From: a virus
Direction: 5' to 3' (one strand)
IMG/VR virus record: IMGVR_UViG_3300030012_001696
Span: 7,601 to 71,600 of that record
Length of the DNA stretch: 64,000 nucleotides
This document shows positions 7,589 to 49,316 of this stretch, piece by piece. The notes under the pieces are model-generated. The model saw nothing but the letters and a program-made list of their open reading frames with translations. It was not told where the DNA came from and did no database searches. The position numbers and the translations under genes were made by a program. Each line of letters opens with the position of its first letter. Within the stretch, counting starts at the first letter, position 1.

Positions 7589-7741
7589 ATGTATATTAGA
7601 TTAGAAAAGTCCTTTAATGACTATCTTAGGATAAGTTATGAAGGCAATGGTATGTGGTATTATCGTTGGAATGGTCTAGTTCCAAATGATAATGTTGATA
7701 CCTGGACTATGATTGATGTAGTCCTAGCCTTTCTTAAATGA
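7589..7741 (+). CDS. 50-aa hypothetical early protein
   Basis: GGAGG RBS; MYIRLEKSFND... translated by eye. Confidence 0.6.
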   Translation: MYIRLEKSFNDYLRISYEGNGMWYYRWNGLVPNDNVDTWTMIDVVLAFLK

Positions 7742-34835: not shown

Positions 34836-35135
34836 TTATCCAGATTTTGCCTTTACAAATTTTCTAACTACAGGACTATCATTTAATGGTCTACCATCAG
34901 ACAGATTAATCCACTCACCTCTTCTTTTAATATACTGTTCTACTTTATTTAAATTACCAGGATTTTCATAATAAACAATATCTCCTTCTACTCCTGATTC
35001 TTGCGTAGGTATTTCATCTACAAACCTTGGTCTTTGTTGGGAATAATGATTAGTTCTTCTTTTATTATCAGAAGTTCCCCCGCCTACTCCAGCAAAAATA
35101 GGAACGCTAAATTTTTTTTCTATTTCTTTTGCCAT
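34836..35135 (-). CDS. Small putative tail protein
   Basis: Coupled to the tail-tube gene. Confidence 0.55.
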   Translation of the reverse strand: MAKEIEKKFSVPIFAGVGGGTSDNKRRTNHYSQQRPRFVDEIPTQESGVEGDIVYYENPGNLNKVEQYIKRRGEWINLSDGRPLNDSPVVRKFVKAKSG

Positions 35136-36313
35136 TATTTTACACTCTTTTGTCTATATATTATTGACATATCATTTATTTCAAAATCAGCTGATACATC
35201 TTGACCGCTTACATCTTCAAACTTCATACTAAATGTTTTAATATTATTTGCATTAGATTGTGTATATAATTCTATTACTGTAAAGTTAGCACTACCTACT
35301 ATGTTTGTTATTTGAGCACCAGAACTATCTACAAAATTATTAGTGTATCCGCCTCCGTCTACTGAATATTTAGGCAATACATTTGTGTTACCACCACTAG
35401 CACCTTTATACGTTAATTCTACTTTAATTACTTTCTTTTTAGCTTGTGTTCCAAAGTTTAATTCTTTTAATTGAACATTAAAGTTATTTATAGCTTCTGA
35501 AGAACTTGATTGCCAAGGAACAATAGTAGTTTGGTTTGCAGTATTTTCGTATCCATATATTAAACTACCATTCCACATATTTACTAAGTTTGTTTTATCT
35601 TCAGCGTTTAATCTAGCTGTTCCTTTTACCCAAGAACTTGTTACCATATCATAAACTAAAATGTCCCCACTATTGCTTGTAGCATTTTTAAATGACTTCA
35701 TAATAATTAATTGTTTTGACTTAGGAGAAAAACCTACCATTGTTTCTCCGTTTACATAAAAACTACTCCATAAAGATTCTGATATAAAACGTACACCTTC
35801 TTTTACAAATAAATCACCTACTTGTCTACCATTGTATAAATATACTCCATGTTCATTACACCAAGCTACACCATAATCTGTTTCACATACTGCATTGTGA
35901 TGAGATACGCCTTTGTGTTTGTGTGTAGCTTCTAAAAACTCTTGGCTTTTTGTTGCATTGATAATATATAGAGTGTTTTGTTTGTATTGTAATAATCTAT
36001 CTGCATATGTAGCTAGTCTAATAATTTCTTCACCATCATTAACTGCAACATCAATTCTTCTATCCATTGTAAAAGTATCAAATTGTCCAGCTCTAGACTT
36101 AAATACACTATCGCTTAGAATGCGTTCTTTGTTATGTTTATCAACTAATTTTACATTTCCTAAGTATAACCTTTGTCCAATTAAAACAGACGTTTTCCAT
36201 TTGATTTGTTTTATTAAATGTTCTTGCCTTAATCTTTTATTAGCTAAAGGAGGAAAATTAAAAGGAACTCCTAATCTATACTTGCCTGGATTCATTACTG
36301 CATAATTAGCCAT
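35135..36313 (-). CDS. Tail tube/nozzle protein A, C-terminal half
   Basis: Aligns with the C-half of 45843-47972 (NDGE..RLLQYKQNTLYIIN vs NDGD..RLLAYKQNKLYIIN; EINDMSIIYR vs EINDITIEYR). Confidence 0.7.
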   Translation of the reverse strand: MANYAVMNPGKYRLGVPFNFPPLANKRLRQEHLIKQIKWKTSVLIGQRLYLGNVKLVDKHNKERILSDSVFKSRAGQFDTFTMDRRIDVAVNDGEEIIRLATYADRLLQYKQNTLYIINATKSQEFLEATHKHKGVSHHNAVCETDYGVAWCNEHGVYLYNGRQVGDLFVKEGVRFISESLWSSFYVNGETMVGFSPKSKQLIIMKSFKNATSNSGDILVYDMVTSSWVKGTARLNAEDKTNLVNMWNGSLIYGYENTANQTTIVPWQSSSSEAINNFNVQLKELNFGTQAKKKVIKVELTYKGASGGNTNVLPKYSVDGGGYTNNFVDSSGAQITNIVGSANFTVIELYTQSNANNIKTFSMKFEDVSGQDVSADFEINDMSIIYRQKSVK

Positions 36314-37872
36314 TAGTATTCCCTTTCTTGTTGGTCTTCATCATAGTCAGGTGGAGCTGATAAACCACTATCAGCTATAGTCATATATTGTATATCACTA
36401 TCTGCTATAACGTTAAAGTTTTCATCTAACACTTGTACTCTAAATTCTCTATCTGTTCCTGGTCCTGGTAGTGTTAAAGGAACATAATACGTATCTACTG
36501 TAGTTCCTGGTGTACCAGATATACCAGTCTTTAATGCAATTTTACTTCCAGATGCACCTCCTACATATAAAGGAGATACTGCTCCACCCCAAACTCTTAA
36601 GAATCCAAACCTATTATCAAAGCCATTAGCTGAATTATTATTATCTAATTTAACTCTTAAAAATACATTACTATAAGATTTTCCTGCAGTACTAGAAGTA
36701 TAAGCAGTTCCACTATTCATCCAATCAGTTCCAGTGCCATCATTTTTATCATGAAACGACAAAGCTGTATTTTGTTGTATAGCATTATAAATTTGTATTC
36801 CTTCTTTTTGTGCAAAAAACTTTGGCGTAACATTTTGTTCAGCGCTATCACCTTGCCATTTGCCATGAGTAGTTTCATTTTGAGGGTCATATACATTCCA
36901 AAAATGTTTACCACCTTCTTTTAAATCTGTGTGCATTAAAAATATCCAATCATCATCTGCTTGTTCTTTAAAATAAAAGTTTAATCCAATTAAACGATTA
37001 TCTCCAAATATGTTATCTCCAGATAAAGATGTTGGTTTAGAACCAGCAGTTCCTACACCTAAAAATACTTGAAAAGAAATTTGCTCGTTATACAAAGGTA
37101 TAGAATCTTCTATTCTATTTACAAAGTCGCTATAAAATATTGATATTTCTCCTTCTTGATTACCTTGATAAATTGCTGTAGCACCAAAGGTAAAGTTTCC
37201 ATTCCACTCTCCACCCTCAGTAGTTTTATATCCTAAAATTAAACTACCTTTTTGTGAACTAATAGTAGAAGCATCAGGACTAGCGCTTTCTATATCTATT
37301 AATTTCATAGTTGCTCCTGATAAAGCATCAAGCTTACGAAGTTTTTGATTGCCGCTATCCCATTTAGTTATATCGTGTAGATTTGTAGAATTACCTCTAT
37401 CATCAGTCCAAAACAATGACTGGTCTATATATCCAAACCATTTACTATTTTGACTAAAAGAAGCATCTCCAATACGTAATAAACCATCACCATAATAATA
37501 ATTAGGTTTTATAGCACCATCAAATGTTACTTCATCAGACAAAAAACTAGGACTAGAACCATCTTTGTCTCTATAATAAAAACGAACTTTAGTGTTCGCT
37601 TTGTCATATACAGCTAAATAGTCATCTGGGTTATTAGCACTACCATGGTCGTAATCAGAAGAAAAATAATGTAAGCCATATCCAGGCTCAACATCAGCGG
37701 TAGCACCACTTGTAATAGCACTACCTTTATTTCCTAATCCTACTAGTCTACCTATTTTATGAGTAGATACACCATCAGCTTCACGTAAGTCTATATCACG
37801 TATATCTTTTGAGTCTGAGTTATCATGAATACCACCATGAAACCCTAGTATTTTATACTCTTTTTTTGGCAT
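36313..37872 (-). CDS. Tail tube/nozzle protein A, N-terminal half
   Basis: MPKKEYKILGFHGGIH..S..KDI vs MPKQMLKLNDFSGGLN..S.PRDV of the 709-aa paralog; F.GG N-terminus typical of podophage nozzle proteins. Confidence 0.65.
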   Translation of the reverse strand: MPKKEYKILGFHGGIHDNSDSKDIRDIDLREADGVSTHKIGRLVGLGNKGSAITSGATADVEPGYGLHYFSSDYDHGSANNPDDYLAVYDKANTKVRFYYRDKDGSSPSFLSDEVTFDGAIKPNYYYGDGLLRIGDASFSQNSKWFGYIDQSLFWTDDRGNSTNLHDITKWDSGNQKLRKLDALSGATMKLIDIESASPDASTISSQKGSLILGYKTTEGGEWNGNFTFGATAIYQGNQEGEISIFYSDFVNRIEDSIPLYNEQISFQVFLGVGTAGSKPTSLSGDNIFGDNRLIGLNFYFKEQADDDWIFLMHTDLKEGGKHFWNVYDPQNETTHGKWQGDSAEQNVTPKFFAQKEGIQIYNAIQQNTALSFHDKNDGTGTDWMNSGTAYTSSTAGKSYSNVFLRVKLDNNNSANGFDNRFGFLRVWGGAVSPLYVGGASGSKIALKTGISGTPGTTVDTYYVPLTLPGPGTDREFRVQVLDENFNVIADSDIQYMTIADSGLSAPPDYDEDQQEREY

Positions 37873-37875
37873 TGA

Positions 37876-37905
37876 CTAGCATCCACATCCACATTCACAG
37901 TTCAT
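37876..37905 (-). CDS. 9-aa Cys-rich micropeptide MNCECGCGC, copy A
   Basis: AGGAGG RBS; the identical peptide is encoded at 47973-48002 with 5 synonymous changes. Confidence 0.75.
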   Translation of the reverse strand: MNCECGCGC

Positions 37906-37914
37906 GTTGCCCTC

Positions 37915-38067
37915 CTATTTCAATGCTTTTTTAACTTCAGCCCAAACTTCATCGTCTAGCTTATTATCAGACTTAGCAATAAAATAATCACCTAGTTTTA
38001 ATAATACAGCTTTTAGAATTTTTTCGCTTAAGAGGCTTGTAAGTAATTTACTAACTACAATATTCAT
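37915..38067 (-). CDS. 50-aa amphipathic protein, copy A
   Basis: AGGAG RBS; MNIVVSKLLTSL...AKSDNKLDDEVWAEVKKALK; homolog at 48012-48170. Confidence 0.75.
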   Translation of the reverse strand: MNIVVSKLLTSLLSEKILKAVLLKLGDYFIAKSDNKLDDEVWAEVKKALK

Positions 38068-38075
38068 ATTATCTC

Positions 38076-38459
38076 CTATTGAATTTCCTTTTTAATCTTA
38101 TCAAATACCTCTTTCTCATCAAATCTCATACTAATACCAGGTTCATATCTCATAACCTCTTTACCTTCTTTTAAAATAATAATAGTAGGAACAACTTTAA
38201 CTTTCCATTCTTTTTGTATAACTGCACCAATAGCTTTATTACTTAAATCTATTTCTGCTACATAACAAAGTTTAGCTAATTTTTCTACTTTAACTCTATT
38301 TGCATGATTCCAAGATGCGTTTACTTGGACTACTGCACATTTTTGTACATTTAACGCTTGTATTTCTTGAAAACTATTTAAGTTGACTGATTGTGAGTGC
38401 AACCAAGATAGTGACGAGAAGAGCGTTAATACCAAGTATGATATAAATTTGTTGTTCAT
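38076..38459 (-). CDS. Secreted thioredoxin-fold protein lacking CxxC, copy A
   Basis: Signal-peptide-like N-terminus; VVQVNASWNHAN in place of WCxxC; VVPTIIILKEGKEV cis-Pro segment. Confidence 0.75.
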   Translation of the reverse strand: MNNKFISYLVLTLFSSLSWLHSQSVNLNSFQEIQALNVQKCAVVQVNASWNHANRVKVEKLAKLCYVAEIDLSNKAIGAVIQKEWKVKVVPTIIILKEGKEVMRYEPGISMRFDEKEVFDKIKKEIQ

Positions 38460-38471
38460 TTGTAAACCTCA

Positions 38472-38768
38472 TTATTTGTTATTCATGTCTATAAGGGTTT
38501 CAGTGATAGCTCTTGTATCATCTTTAATGTCATCTACTTTTTCTTCAAGCTTATCTACTTTACCTTCTGTATTTAATATAGAATCACGAATCATTTGGTC
38601 TTTCAAATCATACTCCATACGTGATACTTCTGGTTCTGGTAGTTCTTTTGCAAGTTCTATTTCTGCTTGTAAAGAATACCACATACCGATTATCATTCCT
38701 ATAGTGACTACGATACTAATTCCAGTTTCTAAAGATAGTGTAAATTTTGTGTCTTTACCGACTTCCAT
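38472..38768 (-). CDS. Single-TM coiled-coil protein, copy A
   Basis: Hydrophobic N-terminal helix plus heptad repeats; 94/98 residues identical to 49020-49316. Confidence 0.75.
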   Translation of the reverse strand: MEVGKDTKFTLSLETGISIVVTIGMIIGMWYSLQAEIELAKELPEPEVSRMEYDLKDQMIRDSILNTEGKVDKLEEKVDDIKDDTRAITETLIDMNNK

Positions 38769-39040: not shown

Positions 39041-40111
39041 TTATTCAAGTTCTGAATGAACTAATACGCCACCTGCGTAAAAATTATTGTTTTTTGTTAA
39101 TATTGTATATGTAGTGTCTTTGTCTGCTATATACTCAAACCTATGTATTTCTTTAGTGCCGTCTATCATTTGTATGCTATTGCCTACTTCTAATTGCTCA
39201 ACATCTAAATTGTATAAATCTTTACTCCTTTGCGGTCTATAACTAGCCATAGAGCCATCTGCTAAATAAATAGGGTGGTCTCTAGTAACTATTATATTTT
39301 TTAATTCATCATTATCATCATACATAACTTTAATTAAATTGTTATGTGCTACAAATAATGTATCTAATATTGGTACTTCTTCTATACTTTCTGTTTCAAA
39401 GTTATAAGAATATATAATATCACCATCATCTAAATCATATATACTTTTCATACCATCAGGAGTATTTACTAATATACTACCATGTATACAAAATCCACCA
39501 AATGCTTGGAATGTTATATTGCCAGTTATAGCTGCAGTATTAGCACCATTATTTACCAACGTAAAACTAAATGAACCTGTACCATCTTTATTAGAAGGTG
39601 TATGTTGCCAACCTGGTCTTAACTTTAATGTACCAGAATTAAAGCTACTTAATGAACTTTCTAATTGACTAATAGTAGATGCTCCACTTGTACTAGTACT
39701 TGGTGTGCTGCCGTCTGTAGTAAATTGAAACTTTAAATTACCAAATGGTCCACCACTGGTAGTAAAATTATTTACATCAACACCACCGCTACCACCAGAT
39801 AATGTTATTGTTGCAAAACTATTTGCCATATCAGTATCCCCAGCTTCTCCAGTACAATGTAATCCAGTGTTACCACTAATAGACCAAGATACTCCAGCGT
39901 CGTGGTCGTAACTATAAAACTCTGTCATTGAATGAGGTGCACTACCATCAGGTCTATCAGCACTTGCATTAGCTGTATTAATAGTGTGTCCATATAATGC
40001 ACCACTACCAGTAGATAAATTTTCTAATTCAGAATTAGCTCTATTACTAGCATAATCTAACTCAGTTAGTATCTGACTTATCTTTATTTCGCCTGATGAT
40101 TGTAAAGCCAT
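39041..40111 (-). CDS. Tail-associated protein with C-terminal Hint (intein-like) domain
   Basis: MALQSSG N-terminus; C-IHGSILV (block A), TRDHP (block B), NNNFYAGGVLVHS (blocks F/G). Confidence 0.8.
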   Translation of the reverse strand: MALQSSGEIKISQILTELDYASNRANSELENLSTGSGALYGHTINTANASADRPDGSAPHSMTEFYSYDHDAGVSWSISGNTGLHCTGEAGDTDMANSFATITLSGGSGGVDVNNFTTSGGPFGNLKFQFTTDGSTPSTSTSGASTISQLESSLSSFNSGTLKLRPGWQHTPSNKDGTGSFSFTLVNNGANTAAITGNITFQAFGGFCIHGSILVNTPDGMKSIYDLDDGDIIYSYNFETESIEEVPILDTLFVAHNNLIKVMYDDNDELKNIIVTRDHPIYLADGSMASYRPQRSKDLYNLDVEQLEVGNSIQMIDGTKEIHRFEYIADKDTTYTILTKNNNFYAGGVLVHSELE

Positions 40112-43400: not shown

Positions 43401-45843
43401 AATCTAAATTGTTTGCTCCAGTTGCTGTAACTATTGCTCTACCAGTATCCCAGGATAATATTCCATGTGCTGCTGCACTACCCCAATGTATAGTACCATC
43501 ATCTTTTAAATAAATTCTATCTCCTATATCTAAGGTAGCTCCAGGACTTGAAGTTGAAATACCAACTCTATCAGCACTCGCATCTACAAAAAATAAATGA
43601 GTGTCTGTATCTCCCTCAATTCTTGTATCGTAATTTCCACCATCTTGATTTACTGTTAATCCTCTATGAATTTGAACAGAATTAACACCCCAAGTCTGTA
43701 CCATAGCACTATTTGTAGTATCTCTTAGATATAATACATCTTCTCCACTATTGTTATATTGAAGAAAGTTAGTATTTCCATTTGTAAATGCTACACCATA
43801 ATTAGTAGTAATTGTTGAACTTGCACTCAATGCACCTGTTAATGCTAAGGTACTTCCATTAAAAGTAAGATTAGCTTCTCCATTTAAAGCTGTTGAACTA
43901 CTAAATGTTGCTATTCTATTATTACTACCATTTGCTACTGCTGATACTGCACCACTGCTTTGAGAGTCTACATATGCCTTAACACTTTGTTGAGTAGGTA
44001 CATGGTCAGCACTATTAGAAGCCATATTGTCTTCATCTTTAGTTGGAAGTCTATCTATATCTAATGAACCAGTTAAATTACCAGCATCTAAGTAATAGCT
44101 ACCTTGACTTCCATCTAGAGTATCAGCGTCTAGTCCACTACCACTTCCGTCATTACCACTATGCCACATCTCAAACCAACTACCAAAACTACCATTAGAA
44201 ACTCTTCTTATAAAAAATAATTGATTATCATTAGCTCCACCAGACATCTGTAATCCGTAATTACCACTACCGTCAGTTTGATGTGAGTATAAATTTAATC
44301 CCCAATTAGCATTATTAGCCATTGAGCCACTACCACCCAATGGAGTATTAGTAGAACTATTACTATATCTAAATGGTTGTAATCCAGATGCTTTGCTAGT
44401 TGATATATCACTAGTAAATGCAGTATTTAAATTTGTAAATTCAGCTCCATTAAGTATAGCTGTTGTAGTTGTATCTCCTAATAGTTTACCAGTAAAAGTA
44501 ATATTACCAGCAGCAGTATCTCCAGTATCACTTCTTAAATATTTAGTGTCTGTATGTTGTGTAATACTTGAAGCTGCTATTCTTGCATCTGCAAATGTGC
44601 CACTTGTTATTTTATTTGCTGATAAGTTAGGTATTCTTGAAGTTCCTAGTATACCAGTTGTAATCTTATTTGCTGATAAGTTAGGTATTCTACCAGTTGC
44701 TAGTGTACCAGATACTACTTTATTTGCAGGAATATCATCTAATGTTGCTAAGTCGCCTAAACTTGCAGTAGTTGCTAATCCACTAATTCTACTAGTTACG
44801 TGGTCATATATAGCGTTACCAGTTGCCAAAGTTGTAGCACCATCTGAAACTGCAGCAGTATCTAATTCAGCACCAGTTCCTAATCCTAAATTACTTCTTG
44901 CTGTTGAAGCACTTGCCAAGTCAGATAGGTTGCTTGATTTTAATAAGTTAAGACTTGCACTGCCAGTTACATTTCCTGTTACGTTTCCTGTTACATTGCC
45001 TGTAAAACTAGGTGCTGTTATCGTATGAGAAAAATCAAATTCATCATTAGTTGCATCCCATAGCATTGTTGCATCAGTTGATGAATTTACAGCATCTTGT
45101 ATTGTAATACCTGCACCATCTGCAGAGCTTGAAGTATCATTAGTAGCATGATAATTCATTACAATGTTTTTATCTTCTACTTGTAAAGTAGCTGTATTTA
45201 AAGTTGTAGTATCACCCTGTACAGTCAAATCTCCACTTATTTGTACACCATTTGAAAATATAGCATCTCCTGATGTAGAAAGTATTACAGCAATAGCAGA
45301 AGATGAGCCTGATTTCAATGTAAGTCCACCAAGAACTTGGCTTAATCTACCATATTCTGTGCCACCGTCTTTTAGTATAATTTCAGAACCATCTGCATCA
45401 AGAGTTATATTTCCTGCTACATCAATACTATCTGCTACTAAATTTCCTGTAACAATAGGACTTGCTAAAGTTTTGTTGGTAAGTGTTTGAGAGCCAGTAA
45501 GTGTTGCTACTGTAGAATCAATAGATATATCATCTGCATTAGCATCTATACCTGTACCGCCAACTACGTCTAAAGTTATCTCTCCAGTAAGACCGCCACC
45601 AGTAAGACCAGCACCAGCTATAATTTCATGAATGTTTCCTGTTTCGTCTGTTTCTGTTGACAAGGTAGGAGATACCTGTGTAAATTCTTGTTGATATACG
45701 ATACCATTTCTTTTTTCTTGCTTAAATAATTTACCTTTCTCAAGAAAAGAAATAGACTCACCTTCTCTTATGTTTGATATAGAAGGTCGTACCTTAAAGA
45801 AGGAGTCAATATTGTTGACTAAGTGTTTGCCAGATTTAGGCAT
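40396..45843 (-). CDS. Long tail fibre with C-terminal peptidase S74 intramolecular chaperone
   Basis: G/S/T/N-rich; QTLTNKTL, GSGLDADTLDG and RVGIGTSS repeats; SDAKLKENV...IGVIAQEIE..IPEVV...VDYAKL. Confidence 0.9.
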   Translation of the reverse strand: MPKSGKHLVNNIDSFFKVRPSISNIREGESISFLEKGKLFKQEKRNGIVYQQEFTQVSPTLSTETDETGNIHEIIAGAGLTGGGLTGEITLDVVGGTGIDANADDISIDSTVATLTGSQTLTNKTLASPIVTGNLVADSIDVAGNITLDADGSEIILKDGGTEYGRLSQVLGGLTLKSGSSSAIAVILSTSGDAIFSNGVQISGDLTVQGDTTTLNTATLQVEDKNIVMNYHATNDTSSSADGAGITIQDAVNSSTDATMLWDATNDEFDFSHTITAPSFTGNVTGNVTGNVTGSASLNLLKSSNLSDLASASTARSNLGLGTGAELDTAAVSDGATTLATGNAIYDHVTSRISGLATTASLGDLATLDDIPANKVVSGTLATGRIPNLSANKITTGILGTSRIPNLSANKITSGTFADARIAASSITQHTDTKYLRSDTGDTAAGNITFTGKLLGDTTTTAILNGAEFTNLNTAFTSDISTSKASGLQPFRYSNSSTNTPLGGSGSMANNANWGLNLYSHQTDGSGNYGLQMSGGANDNQLFFIRRVSNGSFGSWFEMWHSGNDGSGSGLDADTLDGSQGSYYLDAGNLTGSLDIDRLPTKDEDNMASNSADHVPTQQSVKAYVDSQSSGAVSAVANGSNNRIATFSSSTALNGEANLTFNGSTLALTGALSASSTITTNYGVAFTNGNTNFLQYNNSGEDVLYLRDTTNSAMVQTWGVNSVQIHRGLTVNQDGGNYDTRIEGDTDTHLFFVDASADRVGISTSSPGATLDIGDRIYLKDDGTIHWGSAAAHGILSWDTGRAIVTATGANNLDLKAASGYQVVVNESQSNVDFRVESDTNAHLLFADASSNRIGILRSSPNATLDVAGIGQFRGTSSEAVNLYLGQTTSNSAFMYEFSTYDDAGGIINAGDHLQIKSYRWGQDISFARNGQGGAVPTARFFSSGSSGYFLLYKATDPTNNANYETRVKLNVNGNSYLNGGNIGMGLTNPDVRLHVKDASNDVYLRLETDKTNGNAQVQYFNDAQQYNLGVNNADKFSLWDNTASATRFDIATDGDFKFYGTGSNFESVGGGSATYLLLSGTATQRIEFRNTDNNANGWIGIPSWNTDAWHEYLPTSSGNELAYIYESSRHNYYRGFTVNNGGDNYDFIVKGQNDDTLLYTDASTDRVGIGTSSIGELLHVDGSIEFAGRKYNRGSVTVTGAGTSNGQAITLSTELGTTLHVNYQYRITLNTTGTGTDTGAVYILTYDQDNSAWKLHLVSRKGSSSNHPLAVVDGSNLKVYHNHANAYNILYFVELWDMAADDGTLHGWGSDFMWTRDVNTLSYTDGLVEASIDLGSGSNTIKKTFATNNYPAVTIHSSGTGDSGAAIAIQQATTEGDTIIFADFEPHVEWGINTENGANRIDFTGGSSSPSLGSKTFKNNSGNDRTAYRKMSVRLDNGNVDIAGNLTVANGSSYAGDSTSGVLSTGSWIGDLGSNGWERVCGVQHDGGVFSIVEKNAQISTIVDGSYFAYESGTNQGGGFYSSTSSNYANAPGIRASGASQLYVVQADGGTSDLKVSGAITVQAGDDFALGELTNTLRMKGNGNSAFNFLNSGNGWANLYYNIGYAHSYYQANTNGTLLRMNISSWSNAPTHDIIYNSYGSNLGDYTYLKSAGNSTNTHGMLINSDKYLFWGRTDIESGSISNSATAPITDVCFRVDEDGNGLFDGDVVAFSTTIASDAKLKENVENLNYGLKDVLDIRPVSFDWKDKRNGQHDIGVIAQEIEKIIPEVVVEVDTLNSEDTHKTVDYAKLTSVLIKAVQEQQQQINELKEKLNG

Positions 45844-47972
45844 TATGAAGCTCTCTTATATTTAGTTCTGTATTCTATTGTAATATCATTTATTTCTAAT
45901 TCGTTAGTGGTATCTGCTCCACTTACATCTAATCTAATAGATTCACAGTCTTGGTTTACTGTAAAAACAAGTGTTTTGAACTGAGCAGAATCAATATCTA
46001 CAGTTTCTGTTGTAGTAAAAGTTCCTCCACTATTACCGTTTAAAAGAGTTTTTAATATAATACCAGCGCTTGAACCATCATCTTTTGCAGTCACATAAAC
46101 TTTATATACTTTTTTTACTCTACCTGGTTCATCAAAATCTATATCTTTCGTTCTAAAAAGCATATGCGAGCCACCGCTATCTCCAGAAGATAGTTTTCTT
46201 ATAGTCTTATTGTTGCTACTATGTGCATATTCTGCAAAGAACATACCGCCTACTGTAGATACTATATTAGACATACCTTTCATACCATTACTATCTACAA
46301 TATCTTGTCTATTTTGCTGAAACCAAGCTTGTGTGTTAAAGTCGTATACAAAAAAACTATTAGTTCCATTTGTTCCAGATTCAGTATTAGCAAAAACAAC
46401 TAACTGTTTGTTGATGTTGTTATAAGATATGGCATGAACTTTACCTGCGGTTCCAGTGTTCCATGAAGAGTCATCTAGCTTTACTGTAAGCTCTGTAGGA
46501 GCTGATTGTCCGTTATATAAGTATACGCCATTTTCATTCACCCAACATACTCCAAAAGCAGTTTTTGTTATAGACTCTGGATATTTACAACCCATACCTT
46601 CATATTCTGCTTCTAAATACCATCCAGCATCAGAGCTTGATGATACATTTATAATATATAATTTATTTTGTTTATATGCTAATAATCTATTTCCCATGCT
46701 AGATAAAGCATTAAAAGAATCTCCATCATTAATTCCTATGTCTAAGAAAAAAGATGTAGGAAATGTTTTAAATCTATTGACAGGACTGTAATGTATTCTG
46801 TCATCAAAAACTTCGTCATTAATTCTTACATTGCAAACCCAAGCCCTTCTAGAACATACAGTTGCTCCTTTAAATCCTCCGATAGTTCCAAAGTCTAGTC
46901 TATCTTCATCTTGAGAATAACCATTAATACTTTCATATGTATCTAGAGCTGGAGACTGTGCGCTTAATCCAGTTACAGAAGCATTCGCTGTACTTCCACT
47001 GGCATAAGTTCCTGAAGTAGACCAAGTTTTGTAATCATCAAATAAGTTTGTTCTAACTCCTCTTTCATAGTCCACATCTAATAACAGTTGATATCTTTCA
47101 TTGCTGTTTTGCGCTCTTACATATATTCTTATTCCTTTTTCACCCTCTCTAAATGCATTGGTTGTATTAATTTTAAAACCTATATCTTCAAAAAATTGAC
47201 CAGCAGTTAAAGTACAAGTGTCAGGACTAGAAAATACATGAGGCAAAGTTTCGTCTCCAGTATAATCTACAAAGGTATATGTAAATTCATATGTATCTGC
47301 TTCCCAACCGCCTCCTGATGCTCCTTTATCATATATAAGTTCGAACTCTCCATCTTGGTCTAATGAAGCTGAAAAAGAATCTGCATCAGCAAAGTTTGCA
47401 AGATTAGTTGCTGTATCTGATACTTTAGCAGAACCTGAGATAAACTTAGCTACATCTACTGTAAATCTAGGTTTGGTAACAAACTGTAATACTTTAGGGT
47501 TGCTATTAGCATCTCCAGATACTACTTTTTTATCTGAAACATATAAACTTCCATCAACAAAATAATATACAGGTTCTACATTTGTAGAGCCGCCTAAAGC
47601 TATTTGATTATCGGTTCCTTGATGTGTAAAATCACCTGTAGCATTATAAGCTCTTGTATAGAATTTTATATCAGTACCGTCTGGATACGCCAAAACTTCT
47701 ACTGATGACTCATATTGTGTTCTAGTGCCACTAGTTCTACCGACATCATATTGTGAATTAAAAGAGAATAAACCATTGCCTTTTGCAGCATGGTTTAATG
47801 AAGTTGCACCAGAAACAAGGTCTGTAGGGAATGCTGAGGTTCTTAAGGTTCCTGGAACGTTTGTCAATGTATTAATACATAAAGTTAACTCATTGAGCGC
47901 AACATCCCTAGGAGAGGACTTGGTATTAAGTCCTCCGCTAAAGTCATTCAGTTTTAACATCTGTTTAGGCAC
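45843..47972 (-). CDS. Tail tube/nozzle protein B (unsplit)
   Basis: DFSGGLN N-terminus; beta-rich; homologous to 35135-37872. Confidence 0.7.
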   Translation of the reverse strand: MPKQMLKLNDFSGGLNTKSSPRDVALNELTLCINTLTNVPGTLRTSAFPTDLVSGATSLNHAAKGNGLFSFNSQYDVGRTSGTRTQYESSVEVLAYPDGTDIKFYTRAYNATGDFTHQGTDNQIALGGSTNVEPVYYFVDGSLYVSDKKVVSGDANSNPKVLQFVTKPRFTVDVAKFISGSAKVSDTATNLANFADADSFSASLDQDGEFELIYDKGASGGGWEADTYEFTYTFVDYTGDETLPHVFSSPDTCTLTAGQFFEDIGFKINTTNAFREGEKGIRIYVRAQNSNERYQLLLDVDYERGVRTNLFDDYKTWSTSGTYASGSTANASVTGLSAQSPALDTYESINGYSQDEDRLDFGTIGGFKGATVCSRRAWVCNVRINDEVFDDRIHYSPVNRFKTFPTSFFLDIGINDGDSFNALSSMGNRLLAYKQNKLYIINVSSSSDAGWYLEAEYEGMGCKYPESITKTAFGVCWVNENGVYLYNGQSAPTELTVKLDDSSWNTGTAGKVHAISYNNINKQLVVFANTESGTNGTNSFFVYDFNTQAWFQQNRQDIVDSNGMKGMSNIVSTVGGMFFAEYAHSSNNKTIRKLSSGDSGGSHMLFRTKDIDFDEPGRVKKVYKVYVTAKDDGSSAGIILKTLLNGNSGGTFTTTETVDIDSAQFKTLVFTVNQDCESIRLDVSGADTTNELEINDITIEYRTKYKRAS

Positions 47973-48002
47973 TTAGCACCCGCATCCGCATTCGCAGTTC
48001 AT
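47973..48002 (-). CDS. 9-aa Cys-rich micropeptide MNCECGCGC, copy B
   Basis: AGGAG RBS; its stop codon abuts the GTG start of the nozzle gene. Confidence 0.75.
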   Translation of the reverse strand: MNCECGCGC

Positions 48003-48011
48003 ATTTCTCTC

Positions 48012-48170
48012 CTATTTTTTGTTTAGAGTTTTTTTCACTTCTGCCCATAACTTGTCATCTAATTTGTTAGATGATTTAGCTACAAGCCAATCTCCTAGGT
48101 GCATAATGATAGCTTTGATAAGCTTCTCTGTACCTAAACTTGTAAGAACTTTACCTAATATTGGTCCCAT
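48012..48170 (-). CDS. 52-aa amphipathic protein, copy B
   Basis: GAGGAGG-type RBS; MGPILGKVLTSL...AKSSNKLDDKLWAEVKK. Confidence 0.75.
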   Translation of the reverse strand: MGPILGKVLTSLGTEKLIKAIIMHLGDWLVAKSSNKLDDKLWAEVKKTLNKK

Positions 48171-48185
48171 GATTCCTCCTGTTAA

Positions 48186-48500
48186 TTAGCATTTCCATCT
48201 TCTACGTGCTTGTCTTATTCTAGAATTAGGATTATTCCTAGTTTTAGCAGAACTTCTTTTCAGTTGTCCTAAAGACCTTGCACAATAAGACTTTCTTCTT
48301 TTAGCTGCTTTGCTACCTTTCTTTACTTTACCAGTAACAGCAGTTTTTAATTTACTTCCAGGGTTTGCTCTTCTGTAAGCAGCAACACCCTTTTTAGTCA
48401 TTCCAGCGCCTTTTTTAGTAGGTCTGTAATTGGCATTCTTGCCTTTTGTAGTTCTTCTTATAGACTTTGCTTTTCTTTTACTTTTTTTGCGAGCTGGCAT
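48186..48500 (-). CDS. Small basic protein (DUF6321-like)
   Basis: G.T.KG...YRRANPGSKLK...RRKSYCAR...RRWKC. Confidence 0.75.
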   Translation of the reverse strand: MPARKKSKRKAKSIRRTTKGKNANYRPTKKGAGMTKKGVAAYRRANPGSKLKTAVTGKVKKGSKAAKRRKSYCARSLGQLKRSSAKTRNNPNSRIRQARRRWKC

Positions 48501-48624
48501 TTTTCATTTTACCTTTACCATTACCTTGTTTCATAGCTCTCAACGCTGCAAAATCTGCAGCAGTAATTTTACCAAAAGGTTTAGCTACATCTATATTTTT
48601 CATTTTACCTTTTAATCCAGGCAT
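48478..48624 (-). CDS. 48-aa basic microprotein (GKITAADF motif)
   Basis: TAATG coupling to the Trx-like gene; translated by eye. Confidence 0.55.
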   Translation of the reverse strand: MPGLKGKMKNIDVAKPFGKITAADFAALRAMKQGNGKGKMKNASSQKK

Positions 48625-49007
48625 TATTGAATCTCCTTCTTAATCTTATTAAAAACTTCTTGCTCATCAAATCTCATACTGATACCAGGTTCATATCTCA
48701 TAACCTCTTTACCTTCTTTAAGAATGATAATAGTAGGGACAACTTTAATATTCCATTCTTTTTGAATTACTGCACCAACAGCCTTGTTATTTAAGTCTAT
48801 TTCTCCTACGTAACAAAGTTTAGCTAGCTTTTCTACCTTAACTCTGTTTGCGTGATTCCAAGACGCATTAACTTGTACTACTGCGCATTTTTGTATGTTT
48901 AACGCTTGTATTTCTGCAAAATTATCTAAGTTGACTGATTGTGAGTGCAACCATGATAGTGATGAGCAGAGCGTTAATACCAAGTATGATATAAATCTGT
49001 TGTTCAT
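48624..49007 (-). CDS. Secreted thioredoxin-fold protein lacking CxxC, copy B
   Basis: 114/127 residues identical to 38076-38459. Confidence 0.75.
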   Translation of the reverse strand: MNNRFISYLVLTLCSSLSWLHSQSVNLDNFAEIQALNIQKCAVVQVNASWNHANRVKVEKLAKLCYVGEIDLNNKAVGAVIQKEWNIKVVPTIIILKEGKEVMRYEPGISMRFDEQEVFNKIKKEIQ

Positions 49008-49019
49008 TTGTAAACCTCA

Positions 49020-49316
49020 TTATTTGTTATTCATGTCTATAAGAGTCTCAGTGATAGCTCTAGTGTCTTCTTTAATATCATCTACTTTTTCTTCAAGCTT
49101 ATCTACTTTACCCTCTGTGTTTAATATTGAATCACGAATCATTTGGTCTTTTAAATCATATTCCATACGTGAAACCTCTGGTTCTGGTAGTTCTTTTGCA
49201 AGTTCTATTTCTGCTTGCAAAGAATACCACATACCAATAATCATACCTACAGTGACTAAGATACTGATACCTGTCTCTATAGATAATGTAAATTTAGTGT
49301 CTTTTCCTACTTCCAT
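49020..49316 (-). CDS. Single-TM coiled-coil protein, copy B
   Basis: Near-identical to 38472-38768. Confidence 0.75.
   Translation of the reverse strand: MEVGKDTKFTLSIETGISILVTVGMIIGMWYSLQAEIELAKELPEPEVSRMEYDLKDQMIRDSILNTEGKVDKLEEKVDDIKEDTRAITETLIDMNNK

Follow-up and report, generated by a model that had tools for sequence, protein, structure and literature searches.

A nine-codon open reading frame (ORF) encoding the peptide MNCECGCGC occurs twice in a 64,000-nt stretch of viral DNA (positions 7,601 to 71,600 of IMG/VR record IMGVR_UViG_3300030012_001696; hereafter the window), each time on the minus strand between a small gene and a gene that is assigned below to a podovirus tail nozzle. 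Comparison of the two copies with their relatives in marine viral contigs gives good support to the conclusion that this micro-ORF is a genuine coding gene, left out of annotation, whose frame, start codon, Shine-Dalgarno (SD) sequence and four cysteine codons are held by selection. A Cys-rich leader or micro-peptide ORF that lies in a phage late operon and is merged with the ribosome-binding site (RBS) of the next gene appears to be new; a survey of the literature (main texts, supplementary files aside) found neither the peptide string nor such a phage ORF. Tentatively, the micro-ORF is regarded here as a translated leader mini-cistron that may couple or gate expression of the next late gene through its four Cys codons. 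The two copies and their SD sequences are located as follows.

37905 to 37876, minus strand: micro-ORF copy A, MNCECGCGC with a TAG stop (ATG AAC TGT GAA TGT GGA TGT GGA TGC TAG)
37916 to 37910, minus strand: SD of copy A, AGGAGGG, overlapping the TAG stop of the upstream small gene (duplex with the anti-SD about -10 kcal/mol for the sequence class)
48002 to 47973, minus strand: micro-ORF copy B, MNCECGCGC with a TAA stop (ATG AAC TGC GAA TGC GGA TGC GGG TGC TAA)
48013 to 48009, minus strand: SD of copy B, AGGAG, overlapping the TAG stop of the upstream small gene (duplex about -7.5 kcal/mol)

Selection on the two copies in the window

Both copies encode the same peptide and differ at five positions, all of them silent third positions and one of them in the stop codon, exactly as an earlier note on this DNA had read them. 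Within codons 2 to 9, the differing sites amount to 4 of 4.0 synonymous and 0 of 20 non-synonymous sites (Nei-Gojobori counts; Fisher p = 9.4e-5), which bears out the purifying selection proposed in that note. The flanks have diverged, as was also claimed: the upstream small proteins of the same module pair are identical at 29/50 positions, and the nozzle N-termini of modules A and B share 26% identity over 247 aligned columns. The predicted RBS was found before each copy, with the SD situated 4-7 nt upstream of the start codon.

A degenerate version of the micro-ORF pattern matches the window in two places, copies A and B, and none of 100 shuffles gave a match. When the window was scanned for further short Cys-rich ORFs, none besides these two had both an ATG and an SD. 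The peptide contains four Cys in nine residues (44% Cys), arranged as C-x-C repeats with small or acidic spacers and free of aromatic residues, while Cys accounts for 0.49% of the 15,565 codons in the 32 long ORFs of the window.

A conserved gene family in marine viral contigs

Relatives of the micro-ORF follow the pattern M-N-C-[E/D]-C-x-C-x(1-2)-C, span 9-14 codons and occur in about 80 distinct sequence contexts among IMG/VR marine viral contigs. They are unannotated, which agrees with the earlier expectation that standard annotation would miss such a gene. A pattern search of marine phage DNA, as the earlier note had proposed, recovered MNCECGCGC plus stop in 81 IMG/VR stretches, with an estimated chance expectation of <0.001, and in all 81 the micro-ORF is located between a phrog_402-type gene and a nozzle-type gene. 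The identical 9-mer is encoded by 15 nucleotide versions (83 copies). Among 33 unique versions, all variable columns fall on codon position 3.

As the search with the 9-mer and its stop admitted silent changes only, two peptide-blind searches were added. The first was anchored on the C-terminus of the small phrog_402 protein and yielded at least 119 stretches (58 new loci and 61 already in the set). Among the matches listed, a nozzle or additional tail gene follows downstream of the small gene in 75 of the 119 stretches, and an intact micro-ORF with at least four Cys is present in 71 of these 75: 61 carry the 9-mer and 10 carry in-frame length variants (MNCECGCGGC, MNCECNCCGGC, MNCECQCGWCI, MNCECGCGCVR). 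The micro-ORF is absent from the remaining 44 stretches listed, in which the small gene precedes a metallophosphatase-like (39) or zinc-ribbon-like (5) gene. At the 39 loci, a subset of L082-L139, the metallophosphatase-like gene (LKLKKRGIVIPDQHYPL..) starts with TTG; the zinc-ribbon-like protein of 71-74 aa (MPIYEYMCKCKCKK..CDEC..) is encoded beside the terminase small subunit gene (L090, L115, L117, L119, L133).

The second search was anchored on the nozzle and covered 80 loci, 11 of which gave no nozzle N-terminus by the pattern used. The micro-ORF is situated directly before the nozzle in 39 of the 80 (32 MNCECGCGC, 4 MNCECGCGGC and 3 MNCDCGCGGCVNA), and a GTA_holin_3TM gene (PF11351, 51 bits) is interposed before the nozzle in 30, of which 26 were parsed further. 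A search for PF11351 in the genome of the window gave no match, but neither did the control genomes of that search. The gene after the micro-ORF is a nozzle gene in about half of the relatives and a GTA-type holin gene in sister phages. Of 30 holin-type loci parsed separately, 18 exhibit a homologue of 12-14 codons (for example MNCDCGCGICLS, MNCECGCNLCLN, MYCDCGCGICLS and MNCNCMCGLCLN), the final 13 nt of which overlap the start of the holin gene. The 12-mer pattern was identified in 25 stretches, with the holin ATG inside the ORF in 25/25.

Pooling of about 21 peptide variants revealed at least 12 amino-acid changes at the x positions and none at Cys3, Cys5 and Cys7; by our own count over these variants, the probability of such invariance is (4/7)^12 = 0.001. 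A fourth Cys is present in every variant. The peptides comprise 9-14 residues with 4-5 Cys; consecutive Cys residues are confined to the rare variants MNCECNCCGGC and MNCECGCCICLS, and W or Y occurs just in rare variants. The codon-periodic variation, the whole-codon length changes, the retained start, SD and stop, and the Cys-specific constraint together argue that the micro-ORF is coding.

The lineage that carries the micro-ORF consists of uncultivated marine podoviruses. Thirteen studies contributed the marine and seawater metagenome runs in which the locus was found. Contigs from two RNA libraries of one sample cover positions 37626-38296 and 37628-38109 without differences and bridge the small gene, the micro-ORF and the 5' end of the nozzle gene; they indicate presence in the RNA libraries and not translation, start sites or strand, and carry-over of DNA is possible. 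A single bacterial-genome match to the strict 9-mer pattern came from a contig of a metagenome-assembled genome labeled Ilumatobacteraceae (L142, 960-1200). In this contig, low-GC (guanine plus cytosine) phage-like sequence, comprising small gene, micro-ORF and nozzle start, gives way abruptly to GC-rich sequence some 50 nt after the nozzle gene begins, and the contig was set aside as a clue to the host because it looks chimeric.

Wiring of the junction with the next gene

In all 83 copies of the 9-mer (83/83), the distance from the micro-ORF stop to the next start is 0 or +3 nt. The junction of 0-3 nt reported previously is confirmed for the window, with 3 nt for copy A and 0 nt for copy B. 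Variant micro-ORFs show distances of -1 (TAATG/TAGTG), -8 and -13. Consequently, the stop lies within a few nt of the next start or overlaps it, as in coupled gene pairs. The last codons of each copy contain an SD-like element for the nozzle start.

37879 to 37890, minus strand: codons 6-9 of copy A (GGATGTGGATGC), embedded SD-like element, -7.2 kcal/mol
47976 to 47987, minus strand: codons 6-9 of copy B (GGATGCGGGTGC), embedded SD-like element, -6.9 kcal/mol

The nozzle start had been described as having no obvious SD of its own. This description does not hold, as the Gly codons of the micro-ORF double as a pairing stretch of ordinary strength: the GGATG/GGGTG portion of the 9-mer, formed by Gly and Cys codons, forms a duplex of -6.7 to -7.4 kcal/mol with the anti-SD, compared with about -6.6 kcal/mol for typical genes of this phage. 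In GGAGG variants the embedded SD is stronger (-9.3 to -10.5 kcal/mol). The micro-ORF uses GGA and GGG exclusively, while genome-wide 52% of Gly codons are GGT and 3% are GGG. The downstream gene thus possesses an SD, located inside the micro-ORF. The SD of the micro-ORF itself reaches -7.3 to -11.4 kcal/mol in the nozzle-adjacent classes and -5.6 kcal/mol in one holin class, and it stands at proper spacing in every locus class scored. These features fit a wiring in which a strong own SD, Gly codons (GGA/GGG/GGAGG) that would serve as the next SD, and a stop abutting or overlapping the next start are combined.

The restriction of the Gly codons to GGA and GGG at the nucleotide level, where they form the downstream SD, would also suit a non-coding element with an incidental ORF, which would serve the next gene either as an enlarged ribosome-binding or standby site or as a GGA/UG-rich RNA motif bound by a protein. 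The GGAUGU repeats resemble CsrA-type GGA motifs. Such an element is nevertheless very improbable given the confinement of variable columns to codon position 3, the length variants that differ by whole codons and retain ATG, frame, stop and at least four Cys, and the properly spaced SD that the micro-ORF possesses in every locus class. Moreover, no significant RNA structure was detected at the micro-ORF (fold z = -1.29 and -0.50), and the alternative frame is stopped in 6/25 12-mer loci while the Cys frame is open.

That alternative frame belongs to the holin. At the 12-mer loci (L224-L247), ATGs within the micro-ORF, 9-15 nt upstream of the holin start and in frame with it, begin an uninterrupted stretch of the holin frame (MWMWNMPKL.., MWNMPKL..) in 19/25 cases, and a stop breaks this upstream frame in 6/25. 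Lambda S is an example of dual-start holin control, and the sister-phage gene after the micro-ORF is likewise a holin gene; judged from these reading frames, a dual-start holin/antiholin arrangement is possible at the 12-mer loci, though it is not conserved.

A further explanation is suggested by the reading frame in the window, which is shared by the small gene, its TAG, three codons, the micro-ORF, its stop, zero or one codon, and the nozzle. The micro-ORF could then be an extension of a neighbor, either of the nozzle N-terminus or of the small-protein C-terminus, reached by readthrough or recoding. One fused protein of 63 aa (P0004) exists, in which the intervening stop has become a sense codon and the small phrog_402 protein continues in frame into LGEN-MNCECGCGC; it is a lone sequence from a single 859-nt contig. 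Fusion with either neighbor is scarcely credible and is largely refuted by the remaining loci: the gap between the upstream gene and the micro-ORF measures 8, 9, 10, 11 or 13 nt, so that the frame is not conserved, many loci carry two consecutive stops (TAA TAG), and MNCECNCCGGC as well as the 12-mer variants run across the next start in a different frame. In addition, TAA and TAG are interchangeable as stops.

The earlier note had tied the micro-ORF to tail-tube synthesis. The stop-to-start arrangement with the nozzle is indeed present in both modules, but the link is not nozzle-specific, because the 12-codon ORF of sister phages overlaps the start of GTA_holin_3TM and this holin gene lies upstream of the nozzle.

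A proposed cis-acting leader mini-cistron

On the leader model, ribosomes loading at the micro-ORF would cover the RBS of the next gene, and four Cys codons would have to be read before termination on top of the next start, so that passage through the micro-ORF could couple or gate the next gene in cis. The micro-ORF would act mainly through termination-reinitiation and RBS occlusion, the throughput of the gate would be set by the supply of Cys-transfer RNA (tRNA), and the released 9-residue peptide would be a by-product or have a second role. The occurrence of one ORF family ahead of two unrelated late genes, nozzle and holin, was counted in favor of this model.

Two kinds of known regulation offer a comparison. 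The spacing between stop and next start (-13 to +3 nt), the SD that the upstream cistron has of its own and the position of the downstream RBS under ribosomes that would translate the upstream cistron all recall translational coupling and RBS occlusion by upstream ORFs, for example in PMC13285730. Ordinary coupling, however, does not need a conserved peptide, while four Cys are under selection in the phage micro-ORF, and many 12-mer loci also possess the upstream in-frame holin ATGs (MWMWNMPKL), interrupted in 6/25.

The second comparison is with the mycobacterial “Cys ribulon,” in which polycysteine leaderless short ORFs regulate through ribosome stalling in response to Cys (Canestrari et al., bioRxiv 10.1101/834739). 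The two systems share a very short ORF, missed by annotation and rich in Cys codons, that stands as the first cistron ahead of another gene, and in the mycobacterial case, too, ribosome passage over Cys codons is proposed to set downstream expression. The mycobacterial ORFs are leaderless, contain at least two consecutive Cys codons and precede an RBS-sequestering RNA duplex that is opened by the stalled ribosome, and the genes under their control belong to Cys or sulfur metabolism. In contrast, the phage micro-ORF is SD-led and internal to a late operon, the window copies alternate C-x-C-x-C-x-C, no such duplex was found at the micro-ORF, and a nozzle or holin gene follows. Since the downstream RBS lies inside the phage ORF, stalling would occlude rather than unmask it. 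The micro-ORF may be compared in principle with the mycobacterial polycysteine ORFs, yet it departs from them in each membership feature tested.

Several observations weigh against the leader model. Abutting or overlapping genes are usual in the operon around the micro-ORF, so the geometry is not leader-specific. The downstream genes are unrelated to sulfur, and the tail and fiber proteins are almost devoid of Cys (none in the 519-aa nozzle part, one in a 2901-aa protein), which makes the sensing of Cys hard to account for. The strict C-x-C-x-C spacing, the constant fourth Cys and the conservation of N2 and E4 in the 9-mer clade exceed the needs of a Cys-codon sensor. AAC and TGC are commoner in the micro-ORF than genome-wide, a preference that, on assumed host codon speeds, is read as not pointing to designed slowness. 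RNA structure of the mycobacterial kind is absent. Among the matches listed in the search with the small protein, 4 of the 75 stretches lack a micro-ORF; in these, an 8-nt overlap joins the small gene to the start of the nozzle gene. Finally, 11 of the 30 holin-type loci carry in the same position a protein of 34-41 aa with one putative membrane helix and a Cys-rich tail (..WCKYGGCLNGCDC..); such membrane-anchored Cys-tail proteins before the holin hint at a role at the protein level.

The peptide as a possible product

As the main alternative to the leader model, it is possible, though doubtful, that the peptide itself is the product: a free Cys4 thiolate of 9-12 residues, either miniature metallothionein-like or a Zn/Fe/Cu(Cys)4 binder, that would act in trans with neighboring late membrane, lysis or tail proteins, the tight junction being ordinary gene packing of the sort usual in this operon. 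Three Cys invariant at fixed C-x-C-x-C spacing together with a constant fourth Cys, in a frame whose x positions vary, favor such a product, as does the extreme Cys enrichment over the 0.49% background. The fourth Cys of the 9- to 11-mers lies outside the overlap with the next gene; that of the 12-mers, in contrast, is dictated along with Leu11 by the overlapping holin sequence ATG-CCT-AAR. Both the membrane-anchored proteins with Cys-rich tails at 11/30 holin-type loci and the in-frame fusion P0004 would agree with a function of the Cys motif in protein form. Hydrophobic x residues (L, I, M, W) and the four relatives without a micro-ORF speak against it, and free, unprocessed, functional ribosomal peptides of nine residues are nearly unknown.

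In the genes for these small proteins with a Cys- and Lys-rich tail (..WCKYGGCLNGCDC.., ..CKYGNGCDC..), the stop overlaps the holin start (TAATG; L166, L168, L171, L173, L178, L185, L212, L216 and others), and a similar small membrane protein with three Cys is encoded at a further holin-type locus (L209). Alignment of the DNA encoding the membrane-anchored Cys proteins with the 12-mer loci gave no convincing homology.

For the putative metal binding there are parallels. According to PMC12648655, short CxC-type motifs bind Cu(I) and Zn(II), and the C-terminus of CopY contains a metal-binding CxCxxxxCxC. The micro-ORF product resembles metallothioneins in its high Cys content (4/9), its C-x-C repeats and its scarcity of aromatic residues. 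Metallothioneins, however, have about 25 or more residues and seven or more Cys (the fungal Cu-metallothionein has 25 residues), as opposed to 9-14 residues and 4-5 Cys in the phage family, and the micro-ORF is located in a tail and lysis neighborhood with no metal regulator or transporter nearby. The 7-codon gene for MccA, the precursor of microcin C7, illustrates that a gene of fewer than 10 codons with its own SD can give a functional ribosomal peptide. The MccA heptapeptide needs adjacent dedicated modifying and export enzymes; no maturase-type or modifying enzyme was detected among the neighbors of the micro-ORF in the part of the genome scanned with Pfam and PHROGs profiles. Unlike precursors of ribosomally synthesized and post-translationally modified peptides, nine residues leave no room for both a leader and a core.

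The earlier note had also suggested that the peptide serves as a thiol donor for the nearby thioredoxin (Trx)-like protein that lacks CxxC. This is unlikely, as a signal-like segment is present on the Trx-like protein and none on the peptide; by reading of its sequence, the signal-peptide-like N-terminus makes the Trx-like protein probably periplasmic.

Two bolder proposals, which are together considered unlikely, are that the mini-cistron is a phage sensor of the reduced-sulfur state of the host or, alternatively, that the peptide, as a Cys4 metallopeptide that cooperates with the holin or nozzle, is smaller than any functional phage gene product known so far. In a sulfur sensor, low Cys-tRNA would cause stalling on the Cys codons, and the stalled ribosomes would cover the RBS and start of the holin gene in sister phages and of the nozzle gene in the phage of the window. 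Lysis and tail completion would then be delayed in sulfur-starved cells, amounting to a nutrient-gated clock of lysis and assembly in abundant ocean phages. The low-GC marine hosts of these phages may need reduced sulfur from outside.

The nozzle genes

The gene after copy A is split over two ORFs (519 + 392 aa), while its counterpart after copy B encodes a single chain.

36313 to 37872, minus strand: nozzle A, N-terminal part, 519 aa, with its ATG 3 nt after the copy A stop (aligns to residues 1-223 of nozzle B, E 5e-7)
35135 to 36313, minus strand: nozzle A, C-terminal part, 392 aa, a separate abutting ORF (aligns to residues 367-704 of nozzle B, E 3e-37)
45843 to 47972, minus strand: nozzle B, 709 aa, with a GTG start directly after the copy B TAA

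No sequence-level family was found for nozzle B with Pfam and PHROGs profiles, and tblastn gave no match. A search of the nozzle profile against PDB sequences returned a single match at E 0.66, and a fold search was therefore needed. An AlphaFold2 model of nozzle B was built from an alignment of 15 sequences (mean predicted local distance difference test score, pLDDT, 75.8). Foldseek matched this model to podovirus portal-tail chains (cyanophage A4, SU10, HRP29, T7) with probability 1.00 and E 9e-18 to 3e-11, one of the matches being titled “tail nozzle protein gp12” (7boy_s). The predicted fold confirms the gene after copy B as a T7 gp12-type podovirus nozzle.

Genomic context and the duplicated module

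The window is part of a 71.6-kb virus record that is rated complete and has a GC content of about 32%. Identified phage genes include those for a P22-type portal, an SU10-type capsid protein, a DnaB helicase and the terminase subunits; no tRNA genes were found in the virus record. A blastn search of the locus against cultured phages gave no match, and a search of the capsid protein against cultured phages gave four distant matches and nothing closer. Within the window, a cassette comprising genes for a 98-aa protein, a 32-aa protein, a 127-aa Trx-like protein, the small protein, the micro-ORF and the nozzle is present twice. The genes next to the micro-ORF copies are the following.

37915 to 38067, minus strand: small amphipathic protein of 50 aa (phrog_402, profile E 4e-9), directly upstream of copy A
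48012 to 48170, minus strand: 52-aa paralogue of the small protein (phrog_402), upstream of copy B
48186 to 48500, minus strand: basic DUF6321 protein of 104 aa, upstream of small protein B; the same neighbor relation exists in sister phages
38076 to 38459, minus strand: Trx-like protein of 127 aa without CxxC, with an N-terminal signal-like segment by reading of the sequence (paralogue at 48624-49007, 90% aa identity)
38472 to 38768, minus strand: 98-aa protein with an N-terminal hydrophobic stretch, by eye a putative single membrane segment (paralogue at 49020-49316, 96% aa identity)

The three small genes of 38076-38768 (98 aa, 32 aa and 127 aa, Trx-like) are duplicated at 48624-49316 with 89-94% nucleotide identity. 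Their proteins share 90-96% identity between the copies, while the small protein and the nozzle have diverged (58% and 26%); near-identical small genes beside a diverged small protein and nozzle imply that the phage carries two mosaic tail/nozzle modules. A second IMG/VR contig of 64 kb likewise contains two nozzle modules (L151, L203). The Trx-like assignment derives from weak thioredoxin matches (E 0.03-0.9), and the 32-aa cassette protein is read as a putative membrane protein. A homologue of the small protein in Citrobacter phage Mijalis (Ounavirinae), which we take to be a FelixO1-like phage, is encoded between tail-fiber genes and a putative holin gene. Across the phage group, a very basic DUF6321 protein of about 100 aa is regularly encoded ahead of the small-gene, micro-ORF or holin block.

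A 356-aa protein (39041-40111, minus strand) exhibits a C-terminal Hint-like region, with 24.5 bits for PT-HINT and 30.4 bits for AXH, both slightly under the Pfam cut-offs. The tail and fiber genes between 20054 and 45843 are nearly Cys-free, with 1 Cys in 2901 aa, 2 in 1815 aa, 1 in 927 aa and 0 in four others.

Significance

Gene callers skip ORFs of this length, and a gene that is kept in about 80 distinct marine viral contexts has consequently been overlooked. Its surroundings form a conserved junction in an uncultivated podovirus lineage, in which a basic DUF6321 protein, small membrane or lysis genes and a Cys mini-gene are followed by a holin or nozzle gene. Should the peptide be the product, few functional ribosomal peptides known would be as small, and phages with tail and fiber proteins otherwise nearly free of Cys would be producing a thiolate ligand, which would touch on ideas about metals carried by the tails of marine phages. 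If the cis gate proves true, phage late operons would have in the micro-ORF their first known leader cistron that senses an amino acid, through which the cysteine supply of the host would be linked to lysis or tail synthesis.

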